A stretch of DNA of 64,000 nt, taken from the NCBI GenBank assembly GCA_029861955.1, contig JAOTYK010000007.1, forward strand, positions 60,938 through 124,937, given 5' to 3'. The DNA comes from Acidobacteriota bacterium (GTDB lineage: Bacteria; Acidobacteriota; Polarisedimenticolia; Polarisedimenticolales; Polarisedimenticolaceae). Within the stretch, counting starts at the first letter, position 1, and each line of letters begins with the position of its first letter. Shown here in pieces: positions 55,986-64,000 of this stretch. A program made the translations under genes and the position numbers. A model generated the notes under the pieces. It did not search any database. It had not been told where the DNA came from and saw nothing but the letters and a program-made list of their open reading frames with translations.

Positions 55986-56038
55986 AATAATTGGGGCTAG
56001 ACTTCTTGTTGTTCTGGCCAACCGGTGGAGAGCGTCTG

Positions 56039-57526
56039 ATGGGTCGACTACGCGGATCAAACCTTGTCATCGTCGTTCTGGTGCTGGCGCTGCTGTCGGG
56101 TCCTCACGTCTCCATGGCAGGCGACGCCGGCGAGCTACGGACCGAGGCGTTCGAACGGCTGAACAGGGGCGTCAACGCCTATAAGAAGGGGCGCTTCGAC
56201 GAGGCGATCGAGCATCTCACCGTCGCCAGCAACATCGCCCTCAATAACTTTCGCATCTATTACTACCTGGGCCTGGCGTTGAATGGCGGACGTCGCTACG
56301 ACGACGCTCTCAAGGTTCTCGCTGTCGCTCTGGATCTCGAGCCGGATCATCTGGAGGCCAACGTCGCCGTCGGCAACAGCTGGTTGAAGCTGGGAGATCT
56401 TTCGGAGGCTCAGGCCGCCTACACGTTGGCGCTGAAGCTACGGCCGGAACATGCCTCGGCCCTGGACGGTCTGGCCCGTATCGCCGAGGCTCAGTCGAAG
56501 GATCGCGAGGCGACCCTGACCTATCGGCGGGCCCTGGCAAGCAATCCCGGCTACGCCCCGGCGTATACCCATCTCGGCAGCCTGCACCTCCGACTGGAGC
56601 AATATGAGGAGGCCGTCGAACTCCTGGAAGAGGCGGTCTCGGTGCGACCGGACTTCGCCGACGGCATGAACCGGCTGGCCCAGGCCTACAACCGCCTGGG
56701 GCTAAGGAATCAGGCTATCGCGACGATCCAGCGGGCCATCGAGCTGGAGCCGTTCAACCCCGCGCACATCGCCACGTTCGGCTGGCTGCAACTGGATCAG
56801 AACTACCCTGACAGCGCCGTACGACTGTTTACCCAGGCCGTCGAGATCGACCACGCTCATCCATCGGCCCAACGGGGTCATGCCGAGATCGCTCGACGGG
56901 ACGGCCAGTACGACGTCGCGCTGGAACACCTGAAGATCGCCATCGACGATCCCCGGCTGGGCGCGCTGACCCGGCTCGACCTCGAGACCTTCGCCGGCGA
57001 GATCCAGGAGGAACAGGTCGCCCACCAGGCATTGCAGGCGCGCTTCGAGGACGGCACGGCCACCGAGTCCGATCACGGCGAGATGGCGGCGATCATGGCC
57101 CGTCGTGCACGCTGGCCCCAGGCCGTCACATTGCAACGGCAGGCCGGCGACAGCGCTTCGTCTCAGGAGCGATTGGCCTACATGTTGTTTGAAGCCCAGG
57201 AGTACCTGGAGTCCCGCAAGCTCTACACCCAACTGGCGGCGGAATCCGATCGTGCCGACCTGTTCGTCAACGAGGGCGTCTGCGCCGCGGTGGTCGGCGA
57301 TGATCCGGGTGCCGTGACCGCATTCCGCAACGCGTTGCAACGGAACCCCGACCTCTCCGCGGCCCAACTCTACCTTGCCAACGCGCTCCTCCGTCTTGGC
57401 AAGATCGACTCGGCGAGTGTGGCCTACGATGCGTTTCTTGCCGACAACCGCACCGGCGAGTCGGCGGAGCGGGTCCGTCGGATCCTGAAACAGATCGCAC
57501 CGTCGGCCGAGGGAGAGACCCCATGA
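56039..57526 (+). CDS. secreted TPR-repeat protein
   Basis: Signal-like LVIVVLVLALLSGPHVSMAGD, then many canonical TPR units (AIEHLTVASNIALNNFRIYYYLGLAL, ALKVLAVALDLEPDH, AYTLALKLRPEH...). Confidence 0.8.
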   Translation: MGRLRGSNLVIVVLVLALLSGPHVSMAGDAGELRTEAFERLNRGVNAYKKGRFDEAIEHLTVASNIALNNFRIYYYLGLALNGGRRYDDALKVLAVALDLEPDHLEANVAVGNSWLKLGDLSEAQAAYTLALKLRPEHASALDGLARIAEAQSKDREATLTYRRALASNPGYAPAYTHLGSLHLRLEQYEEAVELLEEAVSVRPDFADGMNRLAQAYNRLGLRNQAIATIQRAIELEPFNPAHIATFGWLQLDQNYPDSAVRLFTQAVEIDHAHPSAQRGHAEIARRDGQYDVALEHLKIAIDDPRLGALTRLDLETFAGEIQEEQVAHQALQARFEDGTATESDHGEMAAIMARRARWPQAVTLQRQAGDSASSQERLAYMLFEAQEYLESRKLYTQLAAESDRADLFVNEGVCAAVVGDDPGAVTAFRNALQRNPDLSAAQLYLANALLRLGKIDSASVAYDAFLADNRTGESAERVRRILKQIAPSAEGETP

Positions 57527-58695
57527 GACCGCTTCGTCTAATCTTTCTCTCTTCCGTCGTGCTGGCGTTGTTTACCGGATCCGTGACCGCACAGGATTCG
57601 ACCCGCAGGAAAGGGTTCTCGATCACCATCGCCGAACCACCCAACCAGACGGTCGTCTTCGGTCGCACGAAGATCGTCGCGGATCTCAAGTCCACCGATG
57701 CCTCGCAGGTCGAACGGGTGGAGTTCATCGTCGGCGACACGGTGGTCTTCGTCGATCGGGAGTCCCCGTGGGAGTACTTCCACGACTTCGGCGCCGGCGA
57801 TCGCAGCAACATCGTCAAGGTCGTCGCCCATCACATCGAGGGCGTGACGGTCAGCGACACGATCGTCACCCGCAAGTTGCGTTTCGTGACGGTGGATCGG
57901 GTCAATAGAGTCCTGTTGTGGGTCACCGCCACCGACAAGAAGGGCGATCTGATTACGGACCTGGAGGAAGACGACTTCGTCCTCAACGAGAACGGCGAAC
58001 CGCAGAAGATCATCGATTTCTATCGTGAGGATCGTCCGATCACCATGGCGATCCTGGTCGATACGTCGGGCTCGATGCGAGACAAGCTGAAGGATGTGCA
58101 CGAAGCCGCCGGCGATTTCGTCAGCACGTTACGTCCGGAAGACAAGGCGCTCGTCATCGACTTCAACGCCAATGTCTTTCTGATCCAGGATCTGACCGCG
58201 GATCACGAGGCGCTGCGAAAGTCCATCGAGAGCACCGAGGCCTTCGCCAACACCGCGCTGTATGACGCGTTGCACGCCAGCTATCGTCGGATCGGAGATA
58301 TCGAGGGTCGCAAGGCCATCGTGGTGCTGTCGGATGGTGAGGACACGATCAGCCAATTCAGCTATCAGCGTGTGTTGAAGGAAGCCAAGTCCAACAACAC
58401 GATGATCTTCTCTATCGGACTGGGCTACGGCGGTGGCGGCGCAGACACCAATGTGTTGAAGGAGCTTTCAGCCTCCACCGGTGGACAGTTCTTCTACGCC
58501 AAGAAGCCGCAGCAGCTTGTGGAGATCTACGCCCGTATCGCCGAGGAGCTACGGGCCCAGTTCTATATCTCGTACTCAACCAATAACGAGAAGTGGGACG
58601 GCCACTGGATCAAGTTGAAGGTCCACAGCAAGCGCGACGACGTCTCGATCCGTGCCCGGCGTGGTTACTTCGCCGTCCGTCGGGAAGACGGCTAG
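57523..58695 (+). CDS. secreted von Willebrand factor A (VWA) domain protein, acidobacterial VWFA-related type
   Basis: Signal peptide, and the MIDAS motif ILVDTSGSM with downstream LSDGEDT and the terminal YFAV-type strand. ATG overlaps the upstream stop (ATGA). Confidence 0.86.
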   Translation: MRPLRLIFLSSVVLALFTGSVTAQDSTRRKGFSITIAEPPNQTVVFGRTKIVADLKSTDASQVERVEFIVGDTVVFVDRESPWEYFHDFGAGDRSNIVKVVAHHIEGVTVSDTIVTRKLRFVTVDRVNRVLLWVTATDKKGDLITDLEEDDFVLNENGEPQKIIDFYREDRPITMAILVDTSGSMRDKLKDVHEAAGDFVSTLRPEDKALVIDFNANVFLIQDLTADHEALRKSIESTEAFANTALYDALHASYRRIGDIEGRKAIVVLSDGEDTISQFSYQRVLKEAKSNNTMIFSIGLGYGGGGADTNVLKELSASTGGQFFYAKKPQQLVEIYARIAEELRAQFYISYSTNNEKWDGHWIKLKVHSKRDDVSIRARRGYFAVRREDG

Positions 58696-58928
58696 CGCAG
58701 CAGGTTCATCGGCGGGATCCATGATGCGTACCGTGGCCCCGGTGACCGGGTTCCTGCGACCCCCTTGTACGGTGCCCGTTGAGGCGCTTGATCGACCCGT
58801 ATTGGGTGAAATAGTGGGGATATCTCATCTTTTCAGACTAATGCCAGCCAGAGCTCTGGCTCCTTGCACGAAGATTAAATGACATTTCTACGTATAATAT
58901 CGACAAGTCGTGAGTCCTAGGTGATGGC

Positions 58929-60242
58929 ATGAGATGTTTTTCGAAGATTTCGATAGCGGCGATTGTTGCGGCAATCTTGTCGGTCGTCGTGCTTTCTGGG
59001 CCAACGTCCCTATTGGCGATCGAGCCATTCGAACCCCTGACCATACGGGTAAACGACGCTTACGGTGTACCCGGTGGTACCGCCGCAGTCGTACTTCGCA
59101 CTTACTCTTCCCGTCCGATCAGTCAGGGCCAACTCTGTATGCAATTCTCTCCGGATAGCCCCGGTGCGCGGGATCCGATTGCATCGGTCGTCAGTGCGCG
59201 TGTCTTCAGTAGCATTCCTGATGTGACCTCCAGCGTGACGGATATGTTGAGTGTGAACCCGCAAGCAATTATCCTCAGTTTCGATTCGCCGTCTATCACG
59301 GTGAACGCAACTGACGGACCGCTCGCCGTGTTCTTCATGAAACTTGATCCGGCATTACTTCCGGGAGCGACCTACGAACTCGCGATCGACCTGGGCAATA
59401 CACAACTGGTGAACTCCTCGGGTGCGCTGATCGAGGTACGACAACGTTCCGGTACGTTGACCATCCGGGATCCCTCCGAAGAAATCGAGGTTGAAGCCGG
59501 TGCCGAGGATGTGATTCCAGGAGAAAAAGCTCTGCTCAGTTTCTCGACTGCCGAGTTCTTCGCGATTGGAAGCGGTCGAGCTACGATTCTCTACGATCCT
59601 GCAATTGCTGATGGATTGCCAGTCGTCTTCATGCAATCTCGACATGGTCAATCCAATTTCACGACCGACCTGACGATCCCAGGGCGTGCACAGGTGGATT
59701 TCATTTCACCCGATGGTTCGCTCAACGAAGTTCCAGGGGATATCGTCGAATTCTGGTTGCCGACCAGGTCTGATATTCCGGTCGGTACCAAGTCGCTTAT
59801 CACACTCGAGCCGTCGGCGACGTTTCTCGAAGATCCTGTCGGAAATTTGCTCAATCTGGACCACGAAAGCGATCTACTTGAATTTGTCAGTGCGCCGGCC
59901 CTCCTTCCCGGGGCGATCCGGGAACTTCGTGTCAATCGCTCCGAATCGGGACAGTTACAGTTGAACTGGCAGGAAGATTGTGGATCCGCGCTGGGATACT
60001 CGATCTACCGGGGCGATCTAACCGAAGGTTACGACTCGATCGTGCCGGTAGCGGGACTCTGTTCCGTGAGCAGCACCCACGTCGAGATTCCGATGAGTAC
60101 GGGGCTTGCAGAATTCTTTCTGGTCGTCCCGTTTCGGGATGAATCCGGTGGGTCGTACGGAGTAGATTCACTCGGAGACCATCGCACGCCGCCGGCGAAT
60201 GCATGTTGGGCTTCCGGCGAGGCCAATGACTGCGCACCGTAG
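58929..60242 (+). CDS. secreted protein: two beta-sandwich (cohesin-like?) domains + C-terminal Cys-flanked Fn3-like module
   Basis: Signal peptide ISIAAIVAAILSVVVLSGPTSLLA. The sequence is beta-rich. The C-terminal 105 aa (LQLNWQEDCGSALGYSIYRGDL..FFLVVPFRDESGGSYGVDSLGDHR..C) share a pattern with modules in the two giant proteins. Lower GC than the flanks. Confidence 0.7.
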   Translation: MRCFSKISIAAIVAAILSVVVLSGPTSLLAIEPFEPLTIRVNDAYGVPGGTAAVVLRTYSSRPISQGQLCMQFSPDSPGARDPIASVVSARVFSSIPDVTSSVTDMLSVNPQAIILSFDSPSITVNATDGPLAVFFMKLDPALLPGATYELAIDLGNTQLVNSSGALIEVRQRSGTLTIRDPSEEIEVEAGAEDVIPGEKALLSFSTAEFFAIGSGRATILYDPAIADGLPVVFMQSRHGQSNFTTDLTIPGRAQVDFISPDGSLNEVPGDIVEFWLPTRSDIPVGTKSLITLEPSATFLEDPVGNLLNLDHESDLLEFVSAPALLPGAIRELRVNRSESGQLQLNWQEDCGSALGYSIYRGDLTEGYDSIVPVAGLCSVSSTHVEIPMSTGLAEFFLVVPFRDESGGSYGVDSLGDHRTPPANACWASGEANDCAP

Positions 60243-62793
60243 TCCACGATCGTTCTTGATCCGCAAGATCTCTTACGCCGTTATCGCCCTGGTCGTATTC
60301 GTTATCGCCACCCACTCACCTGAAGCATTCGCGCCATCACTCGAAGATGCGCGTGCGTTTTACAGAGCAGGCCAGCTCGAGCAAGCGATCGATGCTTTTC
60401 GTGCTGTCGCCGATGCCACCGAGAACAGCGATCCCGTGACGGCGGGCATCTGCCGGAACAATGCATGCGTACTGTTAACAGATCGCGGGGAGCTTGGGCC
60501 CGCTCTGAAGCAATGTGTACTTGCACTGGAGTTACGGCGCAACTTCGACGACCCCTGGCGTGTGGCTCGAACACTGAACAACCTCGGCCGGGTTCAGGAG
60601 CGACTCGGTAATTTCGATGAAGCGAAAAGAAGTTTTCTTGAAGCACTCGCCCTGAATCGCGCGGGAGACGACGCGGCCGGCGCATCAATCAACCTCTCCA
60701 ACCTTGGAGGACTCGCGATCCAGGCCGGGTGGTACTCGCAGGCGATCGATTACCAACGCCGCGCGTACGAAACTGCGCAACAGCACCAGGGAGAACCATG
60801 GGCCGACGAGCAGATGCGATTCGCACGGGTCAATCAAGCTGTCGTACTGGAGAGATTTGGTGCGTTTCGGGAGGCACTTCGACTCTACGATGCCGTTATC
60901 GACGAGGGGCACGAGATGTCGGCAACATATCGTGCCGGCATCCTCGTCAATCGTGGCGTGGCACTCAGAAATCTGGGTGATCCGCTGCGGGCTCTCGAGG
61001 CGTTTAACGATGCATCCGAGATCTACATCACAGATAAGGACCATGCGGCACTATCTAATGCTCGACTGAACCAGGGCCTTGTACAGCAATTGAACCTGCG
61101 GGATCCCGTTGCCGCTGAGAGTTCCTACCGCAAAGCGTTGGCCCTCGCTGAAGCAAGCGGGGAGCGGGCTGGGCAAATCGACAGTTTCTGTCGACTCGGC
61201 GGGCTGCTGCTGGATCTGGGACGCGCCGATGAAGCGCTGCCACTATTTGAACGATCTCTTGAGATCTCGGAGAGCAGTGGATCGAGCGAGGGGCGCTGGG
61301 CGTCTCTGAACGGACTGGGACATTCTGCGCTCGCGCGTGACGATTCCCCTGCAGCACTTAGCCACTTCCTCGCGGCCATCAATGCGATCGAGCTGGTCCG
61401 CGATAGTCTCACCACGAGTACGGATCGCGTCGGCTACTTTACCGACAAGCGGTCAGTATACGAATCCGCCATCGAAGTCCTTGCCGGAATCGCGGATAAA
61501 GACACAGGCGGCGAGCATGCACAACTCGCGTTTCGCCTGGCCCAGCAGGCCAAGAGCCGCGCGTTGCTCGACGTACTGGGTCCAGGTGCCCTCGTCGCAA
61601 TACCGCTCGACGCTCAGGCGGTGATCGATGCCCTAGGAGATGACGTACTTCTTGAATACTTCATTGGATCTTCAGCCGCATTTGCATGGATCGTCAGCGC
61701 CAGTGGAATCGAAATGCGTTCGCTTGGAGCGTCGGAGGTGATCCTCAAAGATGTGGAGCAGATTTACGACGCGCTATCTCGCGGACGTCGCGCATCTTCG
61801 GAAGCTATTGAACGACTCTCGCAAACCTTACTTCACGATATCAATCTTCCTGCGGGACCTAACGGACAGCTCCGCGTCTCACCGGACAATACATTACGGA
61901 AACTACCCTTTGAACTTCTTGAGCTACCCGCTGAAAGCGGCATTCCACTCATTGAGACCGTAACGATAAGCTATCTGCCGAGCGGCTCCGCGCTACCCTG
62001 GCTTCGTAGAGCACGTGAATCTCCGTCCTGGATGTCTATAGGCTTCGGTAATCCACAACTGCCGACCCATGCGCATGAGAATCTTTCTCTTAGTAGTGTT
62101 CTGCTGGCGGCATTTGAACTCGAACCGTTGCCCGCCGCTGCCGATGACGTGCGAGCCATCGAGCGCTATCTCCCTGGACGACATGCCACACGGATCGGTA
62201 CCGCGGCAAGTGAAACGGCGTTTTTCGAACTTGTTGGTTCAGGTGCTAAAGTCGTCCACATCGGGGCACATACGCTCGTGGATGAACGACGAGGAGCGAC
62301 TATCCTGCTGACCCGAGATGCGGAACAGGACGGTCTGCTGCAGCCTCACGAAATCGCGACCCTCGATATTTCTGTCGAATTGACGGTGCTGGCCGCTTGT
62401 CGTACAGCGTCAGGGCCGGTTGCTGGAGGGGGTGCTTTATCAACTCTGACCGGATCTTTTCTAGCCGCGGGATCCAGCGGTGTTCTCGCCACGCTTTGGG
62501 ATGTGGGCGATCAAGACGCTGCCGTGTTCATGGAACAGTTCTACTCTCAACTCGGACGCGGGCAGACTCCGGCAGCCGCCCTACGCGCCGCGAAAATGCG
62601 CCTGCGGTCGGAGCCGGACTGGAACGATCCCGCGGTCTGGTCTGCCTACGTTCTCGTCGGAGACGCAGCACCGTTGGTTTCTCGAAGAATTACGAATGGC
62701 CGTTTGACAACGATCGTGCTCGCGTCAGTGGCGCTGCTCCTGGCCATTTTTTTGACTTACGGAATCATCCGAAAACGTACCGTCTCGGATTGA
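60226..62793 (+). CDS. TPR-CHAT protein (caspase-fold Cys/His protease) with N- and C-terminal TM helices
   Basis: N-terminal RSPRSFLIRK + ISYAVIALVVFVIATH, about 400 aa of TPR_12-like repeats (LNNLGRVQ, LSNLGGLA), then a CHAT core. The CHAT core has VHIGAHTLVDE (His codon 62269-62271) and LTVLAACRTASG (Cys codon 62398-62400). The C-terminal helix LTTIVLASVALLLAIFLTYGII is followed by RKR. Confidence 0.86.
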   Translation: MTAHRSPRSFLIRKISYAVIALVVFVIATHSPEAFAPSLEDARAFYRAGQLEQAIDAFRAVADATENSDPVTAGICRNNACVLLTDRGELGPALKQCVLALELRRNFDDPWRVARTLNNLGRVQERLGNFDEAKRSFLEALALNRAGDDAAGASINLSNLGGLAIQAGWYSQAIDYQRRAYETAQQHQGEPWADEQMRFARVNQAVVLERFGAFREALRLYDAVIDEGHEMSATYRAGILVNRGVALRNLGDPLRALEAFNDASEIYITDKDHAALSNARLNQGLVQQLNLRDPVAAESSYRKALALAEASGERAGQIDSFCRLGGLLLDLGRADEALPLFERSLEISESSGSSEGRWASLNGLGHSALARDDSPAALSHFLAAINAIELVRDSLTTSTDRVGYFTDKRSVYESAIEVLAGIADKDTGGEHAQLAFRLAQQAKSRALLDVLGPGALVAIPLDAQAVIDALGDDVLLEYFIGSSAAFAWIVSASGIEMRSLGASEVILKDVEQIYDALSRGRRASSEAIERLSQTLLHDINLPAGPNGQLRVSPDNTLRKLPFELLELPAESGIPLIETVTISYLPSGSALPWLRRARESPSWMSIGFGNPQLPTHAHENLSLSSVLLAAFELEPLPAAADDVRAIERYLPGRHATRIGTAASETAFFELVGSGAKVVHIGAHTLVDERRGATILLTRDAEQDGLLQPHEIATLDISVELTVLAACRTASGPVAGGGALSTLTGSFLAAGSSGVLATLWDVGDQDAAVFMEQFYSQLGRGQTPAAALRAAKMRLRSEPDWNDPAVWSAYVLVGDAAPLVSRRITNGRLTTIVLASVALLLAIFLTYGIIRKRTVSD

Positions 62794-63302
62794 GCGATCA
62801 AATCGCCATCAACATCTCGCGCCTCAACCCGCCAGAGGTAGGCCACCGCGGGAAATAACTGCGAGTAGGCGTTCTCGGGTAGATCGATCGTCTCTCTATC
62901 TGTTTCTGCTTCCCACAACAGGCTGTCGTCTACCGTGAAAATCTGCACCTGGTAATGCACTGCGCGATCAACTGACCGCCAGCGGAGTGTCTGTGGAACT
63001 ACGGTCAGCTCTCCCGACGGCGCAATCAATTCTAACTGAGTACCACGTACAACAGAACCCGTGCCCCGCGAAGGCACCTCGGGATCGTCGGTGGGTATGA
63101 GAATCAGTCCCGCGCTCACGGCCACAATTAGGACCGCGGCCGCCGCGAGTGCTCGTAGTGACCCTCGGAATCGCTTGGGGGTCTCTTTCTTGAGACGTCG
63201 GCGTAACGTTCTGGCATTCGGCAACGCAGCATCCCGTGGCTCATGTAGGTGCTCGCCCTTGAGTGCCCTGGCAACCCAACGTTCCCAATTGTCCCGACTC
63301 AT
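62757..63302 (-). CDS. single-pass membrane protein, putative non-canonical anti-sigma factor
   Basis: It lies downstream of the ECF sigma gene on the same strand. It has a 45-aa basic cytoplasmic N-part, the TM helix ALAAAAVLIVAVSAGLILI, and a beta-rich outer domain of about 115 aa (LRWRSVDRAVHYQVQIFT..YLWRVEARD). No HxxxCxxC motif. The GTG at 63317 is an alternative start. Confidence 0.55.
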   Translation of the reverse strand: MSRDNWERWVARALKGEHLHEPRDAALPNARTLRRRLKKETPKRFRGSLRALAAAAVLIVAVSAGLILIPTDDPEVPSRGTGSVVRGTQLELIAPSGELTVVPQTLRWRSVDRAVHYQVQIFTVDDSLLWEAETDRETIDLPENAYSQLFPAVAYLWRVEARDVDGDLIAQSETVRFRMIP

Positions 63303-63396
63303 GTTCTCCACCCCCACTCACCAGACCGCGCAGATTCGCGGCTGATGCGTATCCAGTAGACAACGATGACAGGGCTGAAATACATCAATTGCTCTC

Positions 63397-63981
63397 TCAC
63401 GGCTCCTCTCCACCGAGGTCGTCATAGATACGCCGTAACTTGTCGAGACACCGAGCCCGAGTAGGACCCAGACTTCCGATGGGCCGATCCATTATTTGTG
63501 AGATCGTTTCGTAGGTTTTTGGTGGATCGTCCAGGTACAGTGCCCCCAGTAAGGTTTGACAGGTCGGATCCATTTGCTCGAACGCCAACGAAAGCGTGTG
63601 CTCGCAAGCAACTTCGTGGAGATCCGCCGCCAGGTCAGGAGGAGCCTCGCCCGGTTCTTCCGTCACTTCGTCGTCGAGTGAACGCCAACGTTTGCCCGTC
63701 CGCAGGGCCGTCTGGCAGGTATTCCGCGTGGTGACGGCGATCCACGCCCCAAGGGATCCTGCGCTGCGCAGCGATCCAATGTGACGAAAGAGTTTAAGAG
63801 CAACGACCTGCAAGACTTCCTCGGCCTCATCAACCGACATCCGGTAGGTCAAAGGAATCGAGAAAATCAATCGGCGATAGCGTTGGAGCAATAGACCCCA
63901 AGCCGCGTCATCTCCTTCGACGCATGCTCGAACAAGGGCCTCATCGTCGATCTTTGCGGAACTAGAGGACACGTTGGGCAA
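63397..63981 (-). CDS. ECF-type RNA polymerase sigma factor
   Basis: Region 2 (AWGLLLQRYRRLIFSIPLTYRMSVDEAEEVLQVVALKLF, LGAWIAVTTRN) and region 4 (KTYETISQIMDRPIGSLGPTRARCLDKLRR). The window ends 19 nt upstream of its start. Confidence 0.9.
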   Translation of the reverse strand: MPNVSSSSAKIDDEALVRACVEGDDAAWGLLLQRYRRLIFSIPLTYRMSVDEAEEVLQVVALKLFRHIGSLRSAGSLGAWIAVTTRNTCQTALRTGKRWRSLDDEVTEEPGEAPPDLAADLHEVACEHTLSLAFEQMDPTCQTLLGALYLDDPPKTYETISQIMDRPIGSLGPTRARCLDKLRRIYDDLGGEEP

Positions 63982-64000
63982 CCTCTGGGCGACTGAAAAC

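Follow-up and report, generated by a model that had tools for sequence, protein, structure and literature searches.

A predicted periplasmic TPR-CHAT protease with a C-terminal membrane anchor, encoded beside two conserved extracytoplasmic partners in an Acidobacteriota genome

A gene in a 64,000-nucleotide stretch of DNA from an Acidobacteriota bacterium (the window; GenBank assembly GCA_029861955.1, contig JAOTYK010000007.1, forward-strand positions 60,938 to 124,937) is predicted to encode a TPR-CHAT protease that is exported to the periplasm and held at the inner membrane by a helix at its C-terminus. The gene (60226-62793, forward strand) appears to belong to a conserved three-part extracytoplasmic module. 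The other two parts are a secreted tandem-cohesin protein, here called X, and a single-pass membrane protein, Y, which is presumed to be an anti-sigma factor. If the identity of the protein, its C-anchored periplasmic topology and its membership of the CHAT-X-Y module are taken jointly, we put the probability of this reading at roughly 0.6. What is new is the module, which looks like a split, undescribed relative of the DdvA switch of Myxococcus xanthus. To our knowledge, few bacterial relatives of the caspases are as abundant, or as poorly understood, as the CHAT proteases, and DdvA is the only one of the cell envelope that has been studied, its signal and a demonstrated cut still lacking.

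The Gene Product and Its Fold

The open frame runs for 855 codons to a stop codon at 62791-62793. A GAGG lies 3 nt upstream of its ATG start (60226). In the public annotation the gene starts at TTG 60256, 10 residues later, and the basic n-region of the protein is retained with either start. Pfam places the CHAT domain (PF12770) at residues 528-813 with E = 2.4e-53, a score of 181.9 bits against a cut-off of 24, and coverage of profile positions 4-289 out of 289. TPR_12, TPR_1, TPR_2, TPR_8 and related families cover roughly residues 40-450.

An AlphaFold2 model, with a 39-sequence alignment as input, has a predicted local distance difference test score (pLDDT) of 90.6 and a predicted template modelling score (pTM) of 0.87. 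It divides the protein into a low-confidence helix (residues 9-29), 21 consecutive repeat helices (39-451, pLDDT > 90), an alpha/beta domain (474-812) and a terminal helix (821-853). The Pfam TPR matches and the model helices delimit a TPR or helical-repeat array at residues about 39-451 (60340-61578), and Pfam, the model and Foldseek together delimit a caspase-fold CHAT domain at residues about 474-815 (61645-62670). The presumed catalytic residues are His682 (codon 62269-62271), in a GAHT context, and Cys725 (codon 62398-62400), in an LAACRT context. Both are invariant in the alignment of 39 homologues, as is H678. An earlier note on this DNA, made from the letters alone, had described an open frame with a hydrophobic segment at each end, a TPR array and an intact His/Cys dyad at these codons. 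All of these are present, and the structure prediction that it called for yields a confident caspase/separase-type fold that holds the dyad.

The best match of the model in the PDB is M. xanthus DdvA (8rw5 and 8rot_A, E about 1e-17). It is followed by human and yeast separase and the Craspase protease Csx29, with all of these matches lying in the range 1e-17 to 1e-11. The relationship to known CHAT structures comes from this Foldseek search, because a phmmer search of the PDB with the same protein returned TPR proteins only and no CHAT relative. From the Pfam match and the model, the gene product is predicted to be a TPR-CHAT cysteine protease of the caspase/separase fold.

Export, Anchoring and Orientation

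Homologues were sought among 5.8 billion proteins. The orthologous family spans 34-51% identity and 806-898 residues, with more distant members at about 28% identity, and its named members are almost all Thermoanaerobaculia or Acidobacteriota. In an exhaustive profile-free search, proteins of this length class (about 800-870 residues) formed well over 100 clusters at 50% identity. Essentially all complete members start with a signal-peptide-like N-terminus. Nearly all relatives of about 800-870 residues also have a hydrophobic helix that lies 8-12 residues past the motif YVLVGD at the end of the CHAT domain and is followed by an Arg-rich tail. Relatives of greater length (about 1000-1130 residues), also TPR-CHAT proteins, share the signal-peptide-like start but have nothing beyond the CHAT domain. 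Export of CHAT proteins is thus frequent in these lineages, and what marks this family is the C-terminal anchor. In 116 full-length members the N-terminal hydrophobic run has a median of 12 residues (interquartile range 10-15), which is the length of a signal peptide, and the C-terminal run a median of 19 (interquartile range 17-20), which is the length of a transmembrane helix. The mean net charge of the 12 residues before the C-terminal helix is +1.2, compared with +3.5 for the 12 residues after it.

At the N-terminus of the window copy, residues 1-36 (60226-60333), followed by Pro37, are read as a signal-peptide-like region from the sequence, its hydropathy and the sites of its relatives. 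The layout of a Sec signal peptide (a basic n-region, an h-region of 7-15 hydrophobic residues and a polar c-region) is present. Residues 1-14 include the basic R5, R8, R13 and K14 (RSPRSFLIRK). The h-region, residues 15-29 (I15-T29, ISYAVIALVVFVIAT, nucleotides 60268-60312), is the sole strongly hydrophobic N-terminal stretch. Downstream of it lies the c-region HSPEAFA (THSPEAFA, then PS). A34 and A36 suit positions -3 and -1 of a signal peptidase I site, with P37 at +1, where relatives mostly have Q, A or T. Most relatives have AxA or AxG directly ahead of the first-TPR motif [QA][ST]LDEAR, and only a few, the window copy among them, have proline at or near +1. These features indicate that the N-terminal segment would drive Sec export and that in most relatives it is a cleavable signal peptide. 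Cleavage of the window copy is uncertain, because signal peptidase I is blocked by proline at +1 and none of the alternative sites is good (VIA before T, IAT before H, and further small-x-small sites that either have proline at +1 too or are without a c-region). Pro37 may thus leave the segment uncleaved. The earlier note was right, by the +1 rule, that the proline after AFA argues against cleavage there, and its caution is justified for the window protein.

At the other end, residues 827-848 (62704-62769; LTTIVLASVALLLAIFLTYGII) make up a predicted transmembrane helix that begins about 11 residues past the CHAT domain. Hydropathy (Kyte-Doolittle peak 2.65), conservation and the model helix 821-853 all point to it. 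A short basic tail, IRKRTVSD (62770-62790), follows and would be cytoplasmic, judging by its sequence and the charge pattern of the family. No further 19-residue window of the protein is like a transmembrane helix, except for the buried beta-strand region 474-492. The C-terminal helix is thus a predicted conserved tether of the family. That the protein is extracytoplasmic is well supported, both by these conserved topology signals and by its partners X and Y, which are themselves predicted to be extracytoplasmic.

How many anchors are there, and do they stay? The earlier note had read the topology as N-in, TPR-CHAT out and C-in, with an anchor at each end. The orientation stands, with a positive-inside pattern that is conserved family-wide and partners that are predicted to be extracytoplasmic, but the double anchor is doubtful. 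For the window copy it would mean that an uncleaved N-terminal signal-anchor pins the protease to the inner membrane at both ends and that this geometry is functional, which we consider unlikely. The proline after AFA and the lack of a better site speak for it, as do an h-region of 15 residues, at the long end of the family range, and the few relatives with proline at or near +1. However, most relatives have canonical sites (AxA or AxG followed by Q, A or T) and h-regions of 10-15 residues that are too short for a stable transmembrane helix, and the pLDDT of helix 9-29 is low, at about 67. Because short, cleavable signal peptides prevail among the relatives, the family as a whole does not conserve a tether at both ends and probably does not need one. 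A quite different fate for the C-terminal end would be removal. The helix and basic tail could be the kind of sorting signal that a sortase, exosortase or rhombosortase recognises, cut off so that the mature protease is released or attached to the surface. The tripartite look of the end (linker, hydrophobic helix, basic tail) resembles such signals, the tail of one orthologue gives sub-threshold matches to NCBIfam LAETG/LAVTG models over its transmembrane-plus-basic part (E = 0.004-0.007), and the host genome does hold one sortase. On the other hand, neither the window protein nor the tails of its relatives show a conserved LPXTG, PEP or GG-type motif ahead of the helix, and no NCBIfam CTERM model matches the window protein. 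The host genome (4.19 Mb, 99% complete) has no exosortase, and its lone sortase adjoins its own von Willebrand factor type A (VWA) target. A genome-wide scan for proteins ending in a transmembrane helix and basic tail found mainly the ends of polytopic membrane proteins, with no shared motif and no protein family to which this tail is common. A sorting signal is accordingly rejected as very improbable (rhombosortase was not searched for), and the view of the C-terminal segment as a membrane anchor, which its removal would have overturned, comes through. It is harder still to believe in an inverted topology, in which TPR-CHAT stays in the cytoplasm and the hydrophobic ends form a hairpin with both termini outside. 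Characterised CHAT proteases are mostly cytoplasmic (Craspase, separase, HetF). Such a topology nevertheless requires translocation of an N-terminus with four basic residues and of the RKR tail, contrary to the positive-inside rule, and it is at odds with the classical signal peptides of the relatives and with the extracytoplasmic partners. A protein exported by its N-terminal segment and held by its C-terminal helix remains the preferred topology.

The sortase gene itself (genome G000, C24:50443-53096) encodes 220 residues and overlaps the end of a gene for a 664-residue secreted protein with a C-terminal transmembrane helix. The tail of that protein has no classical LPXTG (it reads LPQGGTLDP). 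Arrangements of one sortase with one target are known in some Gram-negative bacteria.

Partner X

The gene for X (58929-60242, forward strand) overlaps the start of the CHAT gene by 17 nt. It encodes a secreted protein of 437 residues that matches no Pfam or NCBIfam family. The AlphaFold2 model (pLDDT 79.8) has two tandem cohesin-fold domains (residues about 35-320) and a C-terminal, Cys-containing domain that is fibronectin type III (Fn3)-like. In Foldseek the model matches the cohesin dyad 3l8q with E = 7e-13 and single cohesins with TM-scores of 0.73-0.78.

The link between X and the protease holds in both directions. An X gene is adjacent in the gene contexts of all eight CHAT orthologues, either upstream on the same strand or convergent downstream. 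Conversely, when three X homologues were taken as the start, a TPR-CHAT gene of about 840-860 codons was found next door each time. In a sample of 401 genomes of the phylum, X is present in seven, and among their loci with a visible flank two have a CHAT gene next door. Overall, CHAT adjoins X in 13 of 15 loci with a visible flank. Beyond the window, no X homologue was found in the host genome.

The Fn3-like domain takes up the last 110 or so residues of X (residues about 325-437, 59900-60242) and has the pattern W..dCG..gY.vYRGdL...C...FflVvP...eG.yG...C....C. The same kind of domain also ends many otherwise unrelated large secreted proteins, with matches in 33 of 119 genomes of the class, often in frames of 1200-1300 residues. 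Further sites in the host genome are C14:27526-29163 and C61:17063-19087. At other loci the X homologues either lack the domain or have poly-Asp tails instead. Conceivably, it is a domain for C-terminal sorting or attachment that has not been described before.

Partner Y and the Sigma Factor

The gene for Y (62757-63317, reverse strand) converges on the CHAT gene, and the two overlap by 37 nt at the 3' end of the latter. Its product of 186 residues has a short cytoplasmic N-terminus, one transmembrane helix (A56-I74, 63096-63152), a juxtamembrane PxxP...RG linker (63042-63083) and an immunoglobulin (Ig)-like ectodomain of about 110 residues (62760-63041). The Ig-like assignment comes from homology to other Y ectodomains and a weak, sub-threshold Pfam Ig match. 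In the family at large the linker motif, PxLP with RG 6-8 residues on, is nearly invariant.

What varies is the cytoplasmic end. At loci L005, L007, L025, L026 and L028 the N-terminus of Y is a zinc anti-sigma (ZAS) domain of the zf-HC2 type (HxxxCxxC). In the window and at L001, L012 and L013 it is short and non-zinc, and at L004, L006, L010, L011 and L022 it is a receiver (REC) domain. The ectodomain of the window Y is nevertheless homologous to those of the ZAS proteins of L005 and L007 and to those of the membrane-spanning REC proteins of L004, L006, L010 and L011. A Y ectodomain adjoins X in 14 of 14 loci in which that flank is visible and X is not alone. From these linkages, the CHAT protein, X and Y are predicted to form a conserved three-part extracytoplasmic module.

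Directly upstream of Y lies a gene for a sigma factor of the extracytoplasmic function (ECF) type (63397-63981, reverse strand; Sigma70_r2 E = 2.7e-10, TIGR02937 sigma70-ECF E = 1.7e-14). Orthologues of this sigma factor occupy the same position at L001, L012 and L013. Counting more widely, an ECF sigma gene is adjacent in the window and at eight other loci (those three together with L005, L007, L025, L026 and L028), and every anti-sigma variant of Y is preceded by such a gene. Several of the REC variants come with a two-component system. The window Y is assumed to be an anti-sigma factor from its position and from the homology of its ectodomain.

The REC variants of Y (L004, L006, L010, L011, L022) have an unusual domain order, with REC, a linker, a transmembrane helix and then a periplasmic Ig-like domain, and they lie beside X and CHAT. 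Their genes often sit after those of an OmpR-type regulator and a hybrid histidine kinase.

The host genome also holds a second TPR-CHAT gene (C9:33780-36197). Its product of 805 residues begins with a signal peptide of the lipoprotein type (LVIPGC) and lacks a C-terminal helix. The gene (region C9:32223-36197) is convergent with genes for an ECF sigma factor and a zinc anti-sigma factor (HTGCADC) that carries a TPR-like periplasmic part.

Comparison with Known Systems

The nearest characterised relative by fold is DdvA, which works with the sigma factor DdvS. DdvA is a single-pass zinc anti-sigma factor whose periplasmic domain of about 900 residues, seen by cryo-electron microscopy in 2024, is a TPR-CHAT protein with a His-Cys dyad (PMC11506125). 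Its authors propose that DdvA clips its own juxtamembrane linker in trans and that RseP acts next (PMC11506125). The window protein resembles DdvA (8rot, 8rw5) as a periplasmic TPR-CHAT protein with a His-Cys dyad that is tethered to the inner membrane, in this case by prediction only, and in its genetic tie to an ECF sigma factor. The site-1-like cut near the membrane that is followed by RseP is proposed for DdvA, and the mechanism put forward below for the window is modelled likewise.

There are clear differences. DdvA is one polypeptide in which an N-terminal zinc anti-sigma domain, a transmembrane helix, a long linker, a scaffold and the TPR-CHAT part follow each other. In contrast, the window protease is encoded as a protein of its own, complete with a signal peptide and a C-terminal anchor, and it lacks a cytoplasmic domain. 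The presumed anti-sigma factor is a separate small gene product with an Ig-like ectodomain, unlike the fused domain of DdvA. The tandem-cohesin partner is an addition, and in some relatives of the module the cytoplasmic output is a REC domain, also unlike DdvA. Sequence identity between DdvA and the window protein is only about 15%. Further marks of the DdvA type are an arrow-shaped dimer and a CHAT part without the three-helix motif. Finally, DdvA regulates an island for CBASS (cyclic-oligonucleotide-based anti-phage signalling) and CRISPR (clustered regularly interspaced short palindromic repeats), whereas the neighbours of the present module encode an ATP-binding cassette (ABC) exporter and glycosyltransferases.

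Two other CHAT proteases are of interest here. In Craspase, the type III-E CRISPR system of Csx29, Csx30 and CASP-sigma, Csx29 cuts Csx30, an inhibitor of an ECF-type sigma factor (PMC10028731). Craspase thus shares with the present case the TPR-CHAT fold, and its substrate is a sigma inhibitor (PMC10028731), but it is cytoplasmic and RNA-guided (bound to Cas7-11) and has neither a membrane anchor nor a signal peptide. HetF of Anabaena is a membrane-associated CHAT protease with one transmembrane segment and TPRs (PMC8406250). It differs in its order (CHAT-TM-TPR), in its role at the divisome, and in having neither the combination of signal peptide and C-terminal anchor nor cohesin or anti-sigma partners. 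The earlier note had described the characterised CHAT proteases as cytosolic or secreted. That is out of date, with DdvA periplasmic and anchored (PMC11506125) and HetF a membrane protein (PMC8406250). A periplasmic, membrane-tethered CHAT protease is therefore not unprecedented, and the claim to novelty on that score is weakened. Triads of a CHAT protease, an anti-sigma factor and a sigma factor are a recurring theme. Our search of the literature on CHAT proteases with ECF sigma classification, or on periplasmic CHAT proteins, found only the DdvA papers and no description of a split CHAT-X-Y arrangement.

Beyond the CHAT proteases, the sigma-E pathway of Escherichia coli offers a parallel. 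There DegS, an anchored periplasmic site-1 protease, cuts the single-pass anti-sigma factor RseA, and the M50 site-2 protease RseP follows. The same logic of regulated intramembrane proteolysis is proposed for the window, and the host genome encodes an RseP-type M50 protease. However, DegS is a serine protease with a PDZ domain, anchored at its N-terminus, whereas the window enzyme is predicted to be a cysteine protease of the caspase fold, to sense through its TPRs and to be anchored at its C-terminus. Separase, likened to the window protein by the fold match, also combines helical repeats with a caspase fold. In the separase-securin pair, which is eukaryotic, cytoplasmic or nuclear, and much larger, the regulator or substrate binds along the repeat domain.

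A Possible Mechanism

What might such a module do? The activity, substrate, signal and output set out here for the CHAT protein are ones that we infer. The C-terminal helix would act as a stop-transfer anchor, with the basic tail left in the cytoplasm. Given export and this stop-transfer step, the TPR superhelix and the H682/C725 domain would therefore lie in the periplasm, with the catalytic domain held about 11 residues off the surface of the inner membrane. There the protease would bind X and the ectodomain of Y. A periplasmic signal, read by the TPR array, by X or by both, would activate it, and it would then cut Y in trans within the conserved juxtamembrane linker (PxLP-x6-8-RG), near the Arg-Gly, which is R91-G92 in the window Y. 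An RseP-type site-2 protease would remove the short stub of Y that is left. In the window this would free the sigma factor; in other genomes it would free the REC domain.

By analogy with DdvA, a split version of sigma release through a CHAT cut of Y is a tentative proposal, possible but short of probable. A broader version goes further. What if the system is a modular switch, with the C-anchored TPR-CHAT protein as a signal-gated site-1 protease, the tandem-cohesin protein as a co-receptor, and Y as a substrate with an interchangeable cytoplasmic end (zinc anti-sigma, short anti-sigma or REC)? We think this unlikely as it stands, rather more so than sigma release alone. If it were true, caspase-fold proteases would count as a general class of enzymes that initiate regulated intramembrane proteolysis, and the REC variants would represent a receiver domain freed from the membrane by proteolysis, an output so far undescribed. 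The interchangeable cytoplasmic ends suggest a portable periplasmic sensing-and-cutting cassette, which would widen the repertoire of transmembrane signalling in diderm bacteria. A split module would also be easier to test. Here the protease, the co-factor and the putative substrate are separate small genes, so that reconstitution of the proposed trans cut in E. coli should be feasible, as it has not been for DdvA.

The proposal has to be set against another, in which the protease is an effector. It would process X, or envelope and surface proteins such as the products of the ABC-exporter and glycosyltransferase island described below, and the sigma/anti-sigma pair or two-component system would merely regulate it. 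It would then be one more exported CHAT protein, and an unremarkable one. X and CHAT are the invariant core and the signalling partner varies (ECF sigma or REC with a two-component system), X precedes and overlaps the CHAT gene in one operon at the window locus, and the island of exporter, sulfotransferase and glycosyltransferase genes recurs at L001, L012 and L013. All of this would suit an effector. However, the same Ig-like ectodomain of Y is found beside X and CHAT whatever its cytoplasmic end, and a three-way periplasmic interaction therefore fits better than plain transcriptional control. Moreover, both characterised precedents, DdvA and Csx29, tie CHAT proteases to the cleavage or release of anti-sigma factors. 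On balance, an effector role seems to us unlikely, though only a little more so than the release of the sigma factor by a cut in Y.

Several observations weigh against the account given here, in its topology, its module or its mechanism. The topology is read from hydropathy, charge and conservation. The X paralogues at L023 and L024 stand alone, with neither CHAT nor Y, and the CHAT orthologues at L002, L004, L006, L010 and L011 have no ECF sigma gene nearby. The window Y does not have the zinc motif HxxxCxxC, and its cytoplasmic part is only about 50 residues long, which is why its anti-sigma function is assumed from position and ectodomain homology only. Upstream of X-CHAT, of the sigma gene and of the divergent ABC operon at the four syntenic loci, no ECF-type promoter common to the X-CHAT operon and the sigma gene was found. 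Gene linkage is silent on who cuts whom: the substrate could be X, Y or the protease itself. Equally, the protease might answer to the sigma factor, as its output, and not trigger it.

The Surrounding Island and Its Promoters

The module lies in an island of low guanine-plus-cytosine (GC) content about 19 kb long. Its GC fraction is 0.55-0.59 (0.57), compared with 0.64 upstream and 0.624 genome-wide. The island occupies about 58000-64000 of the window and runs on to about 77000 (C58:119000-138000). It contains X, CHAT, Y and the ECF sigma gene, followed by a divergent ABC exporter, a sulfotransferase-like gene and several glycosyltransferase genes. This synteny, with the exporter, sulfotransferase and glycosyltransferase genes divergent from the sigma gene, is common to the window, L001, L012 and L013. 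It suggests a mobile or laterally acquired cluster for a surface polysaccharide, with its own regulator. No CRISPR genes were seen in the CHAT locus.

Directly upstream of the island, two genes (55991-58695) meet at an ATGA junction. One encodes a secreted TPR protein, and the other a secreted VWA protein that matches TIGR03436 acidobact_VWFA (E = 2.6e-59) and Big_7. They were considered as members of the module and rejected, since neither occurs at the other loci and both lie before the break in composition, in high-GC DNA.

As to promoters, the only -10-like element that recurs is [CT]GTAT[AC], without a -35 consensus, upstream of the divergent ABC operon and in the X-CHAT leader (CGTATAAT, 58891-58898). 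A TATAAT or CATAAT box is conserved about 10-20 nt upstream of the ECF sigma starts, in the window (63982-64121) and in the homologous spacers of L001, L012 and L013. This suggests that the promoter of the sigma gene may be of the housekeeping type, with a transcript that would be nearly leaderless.

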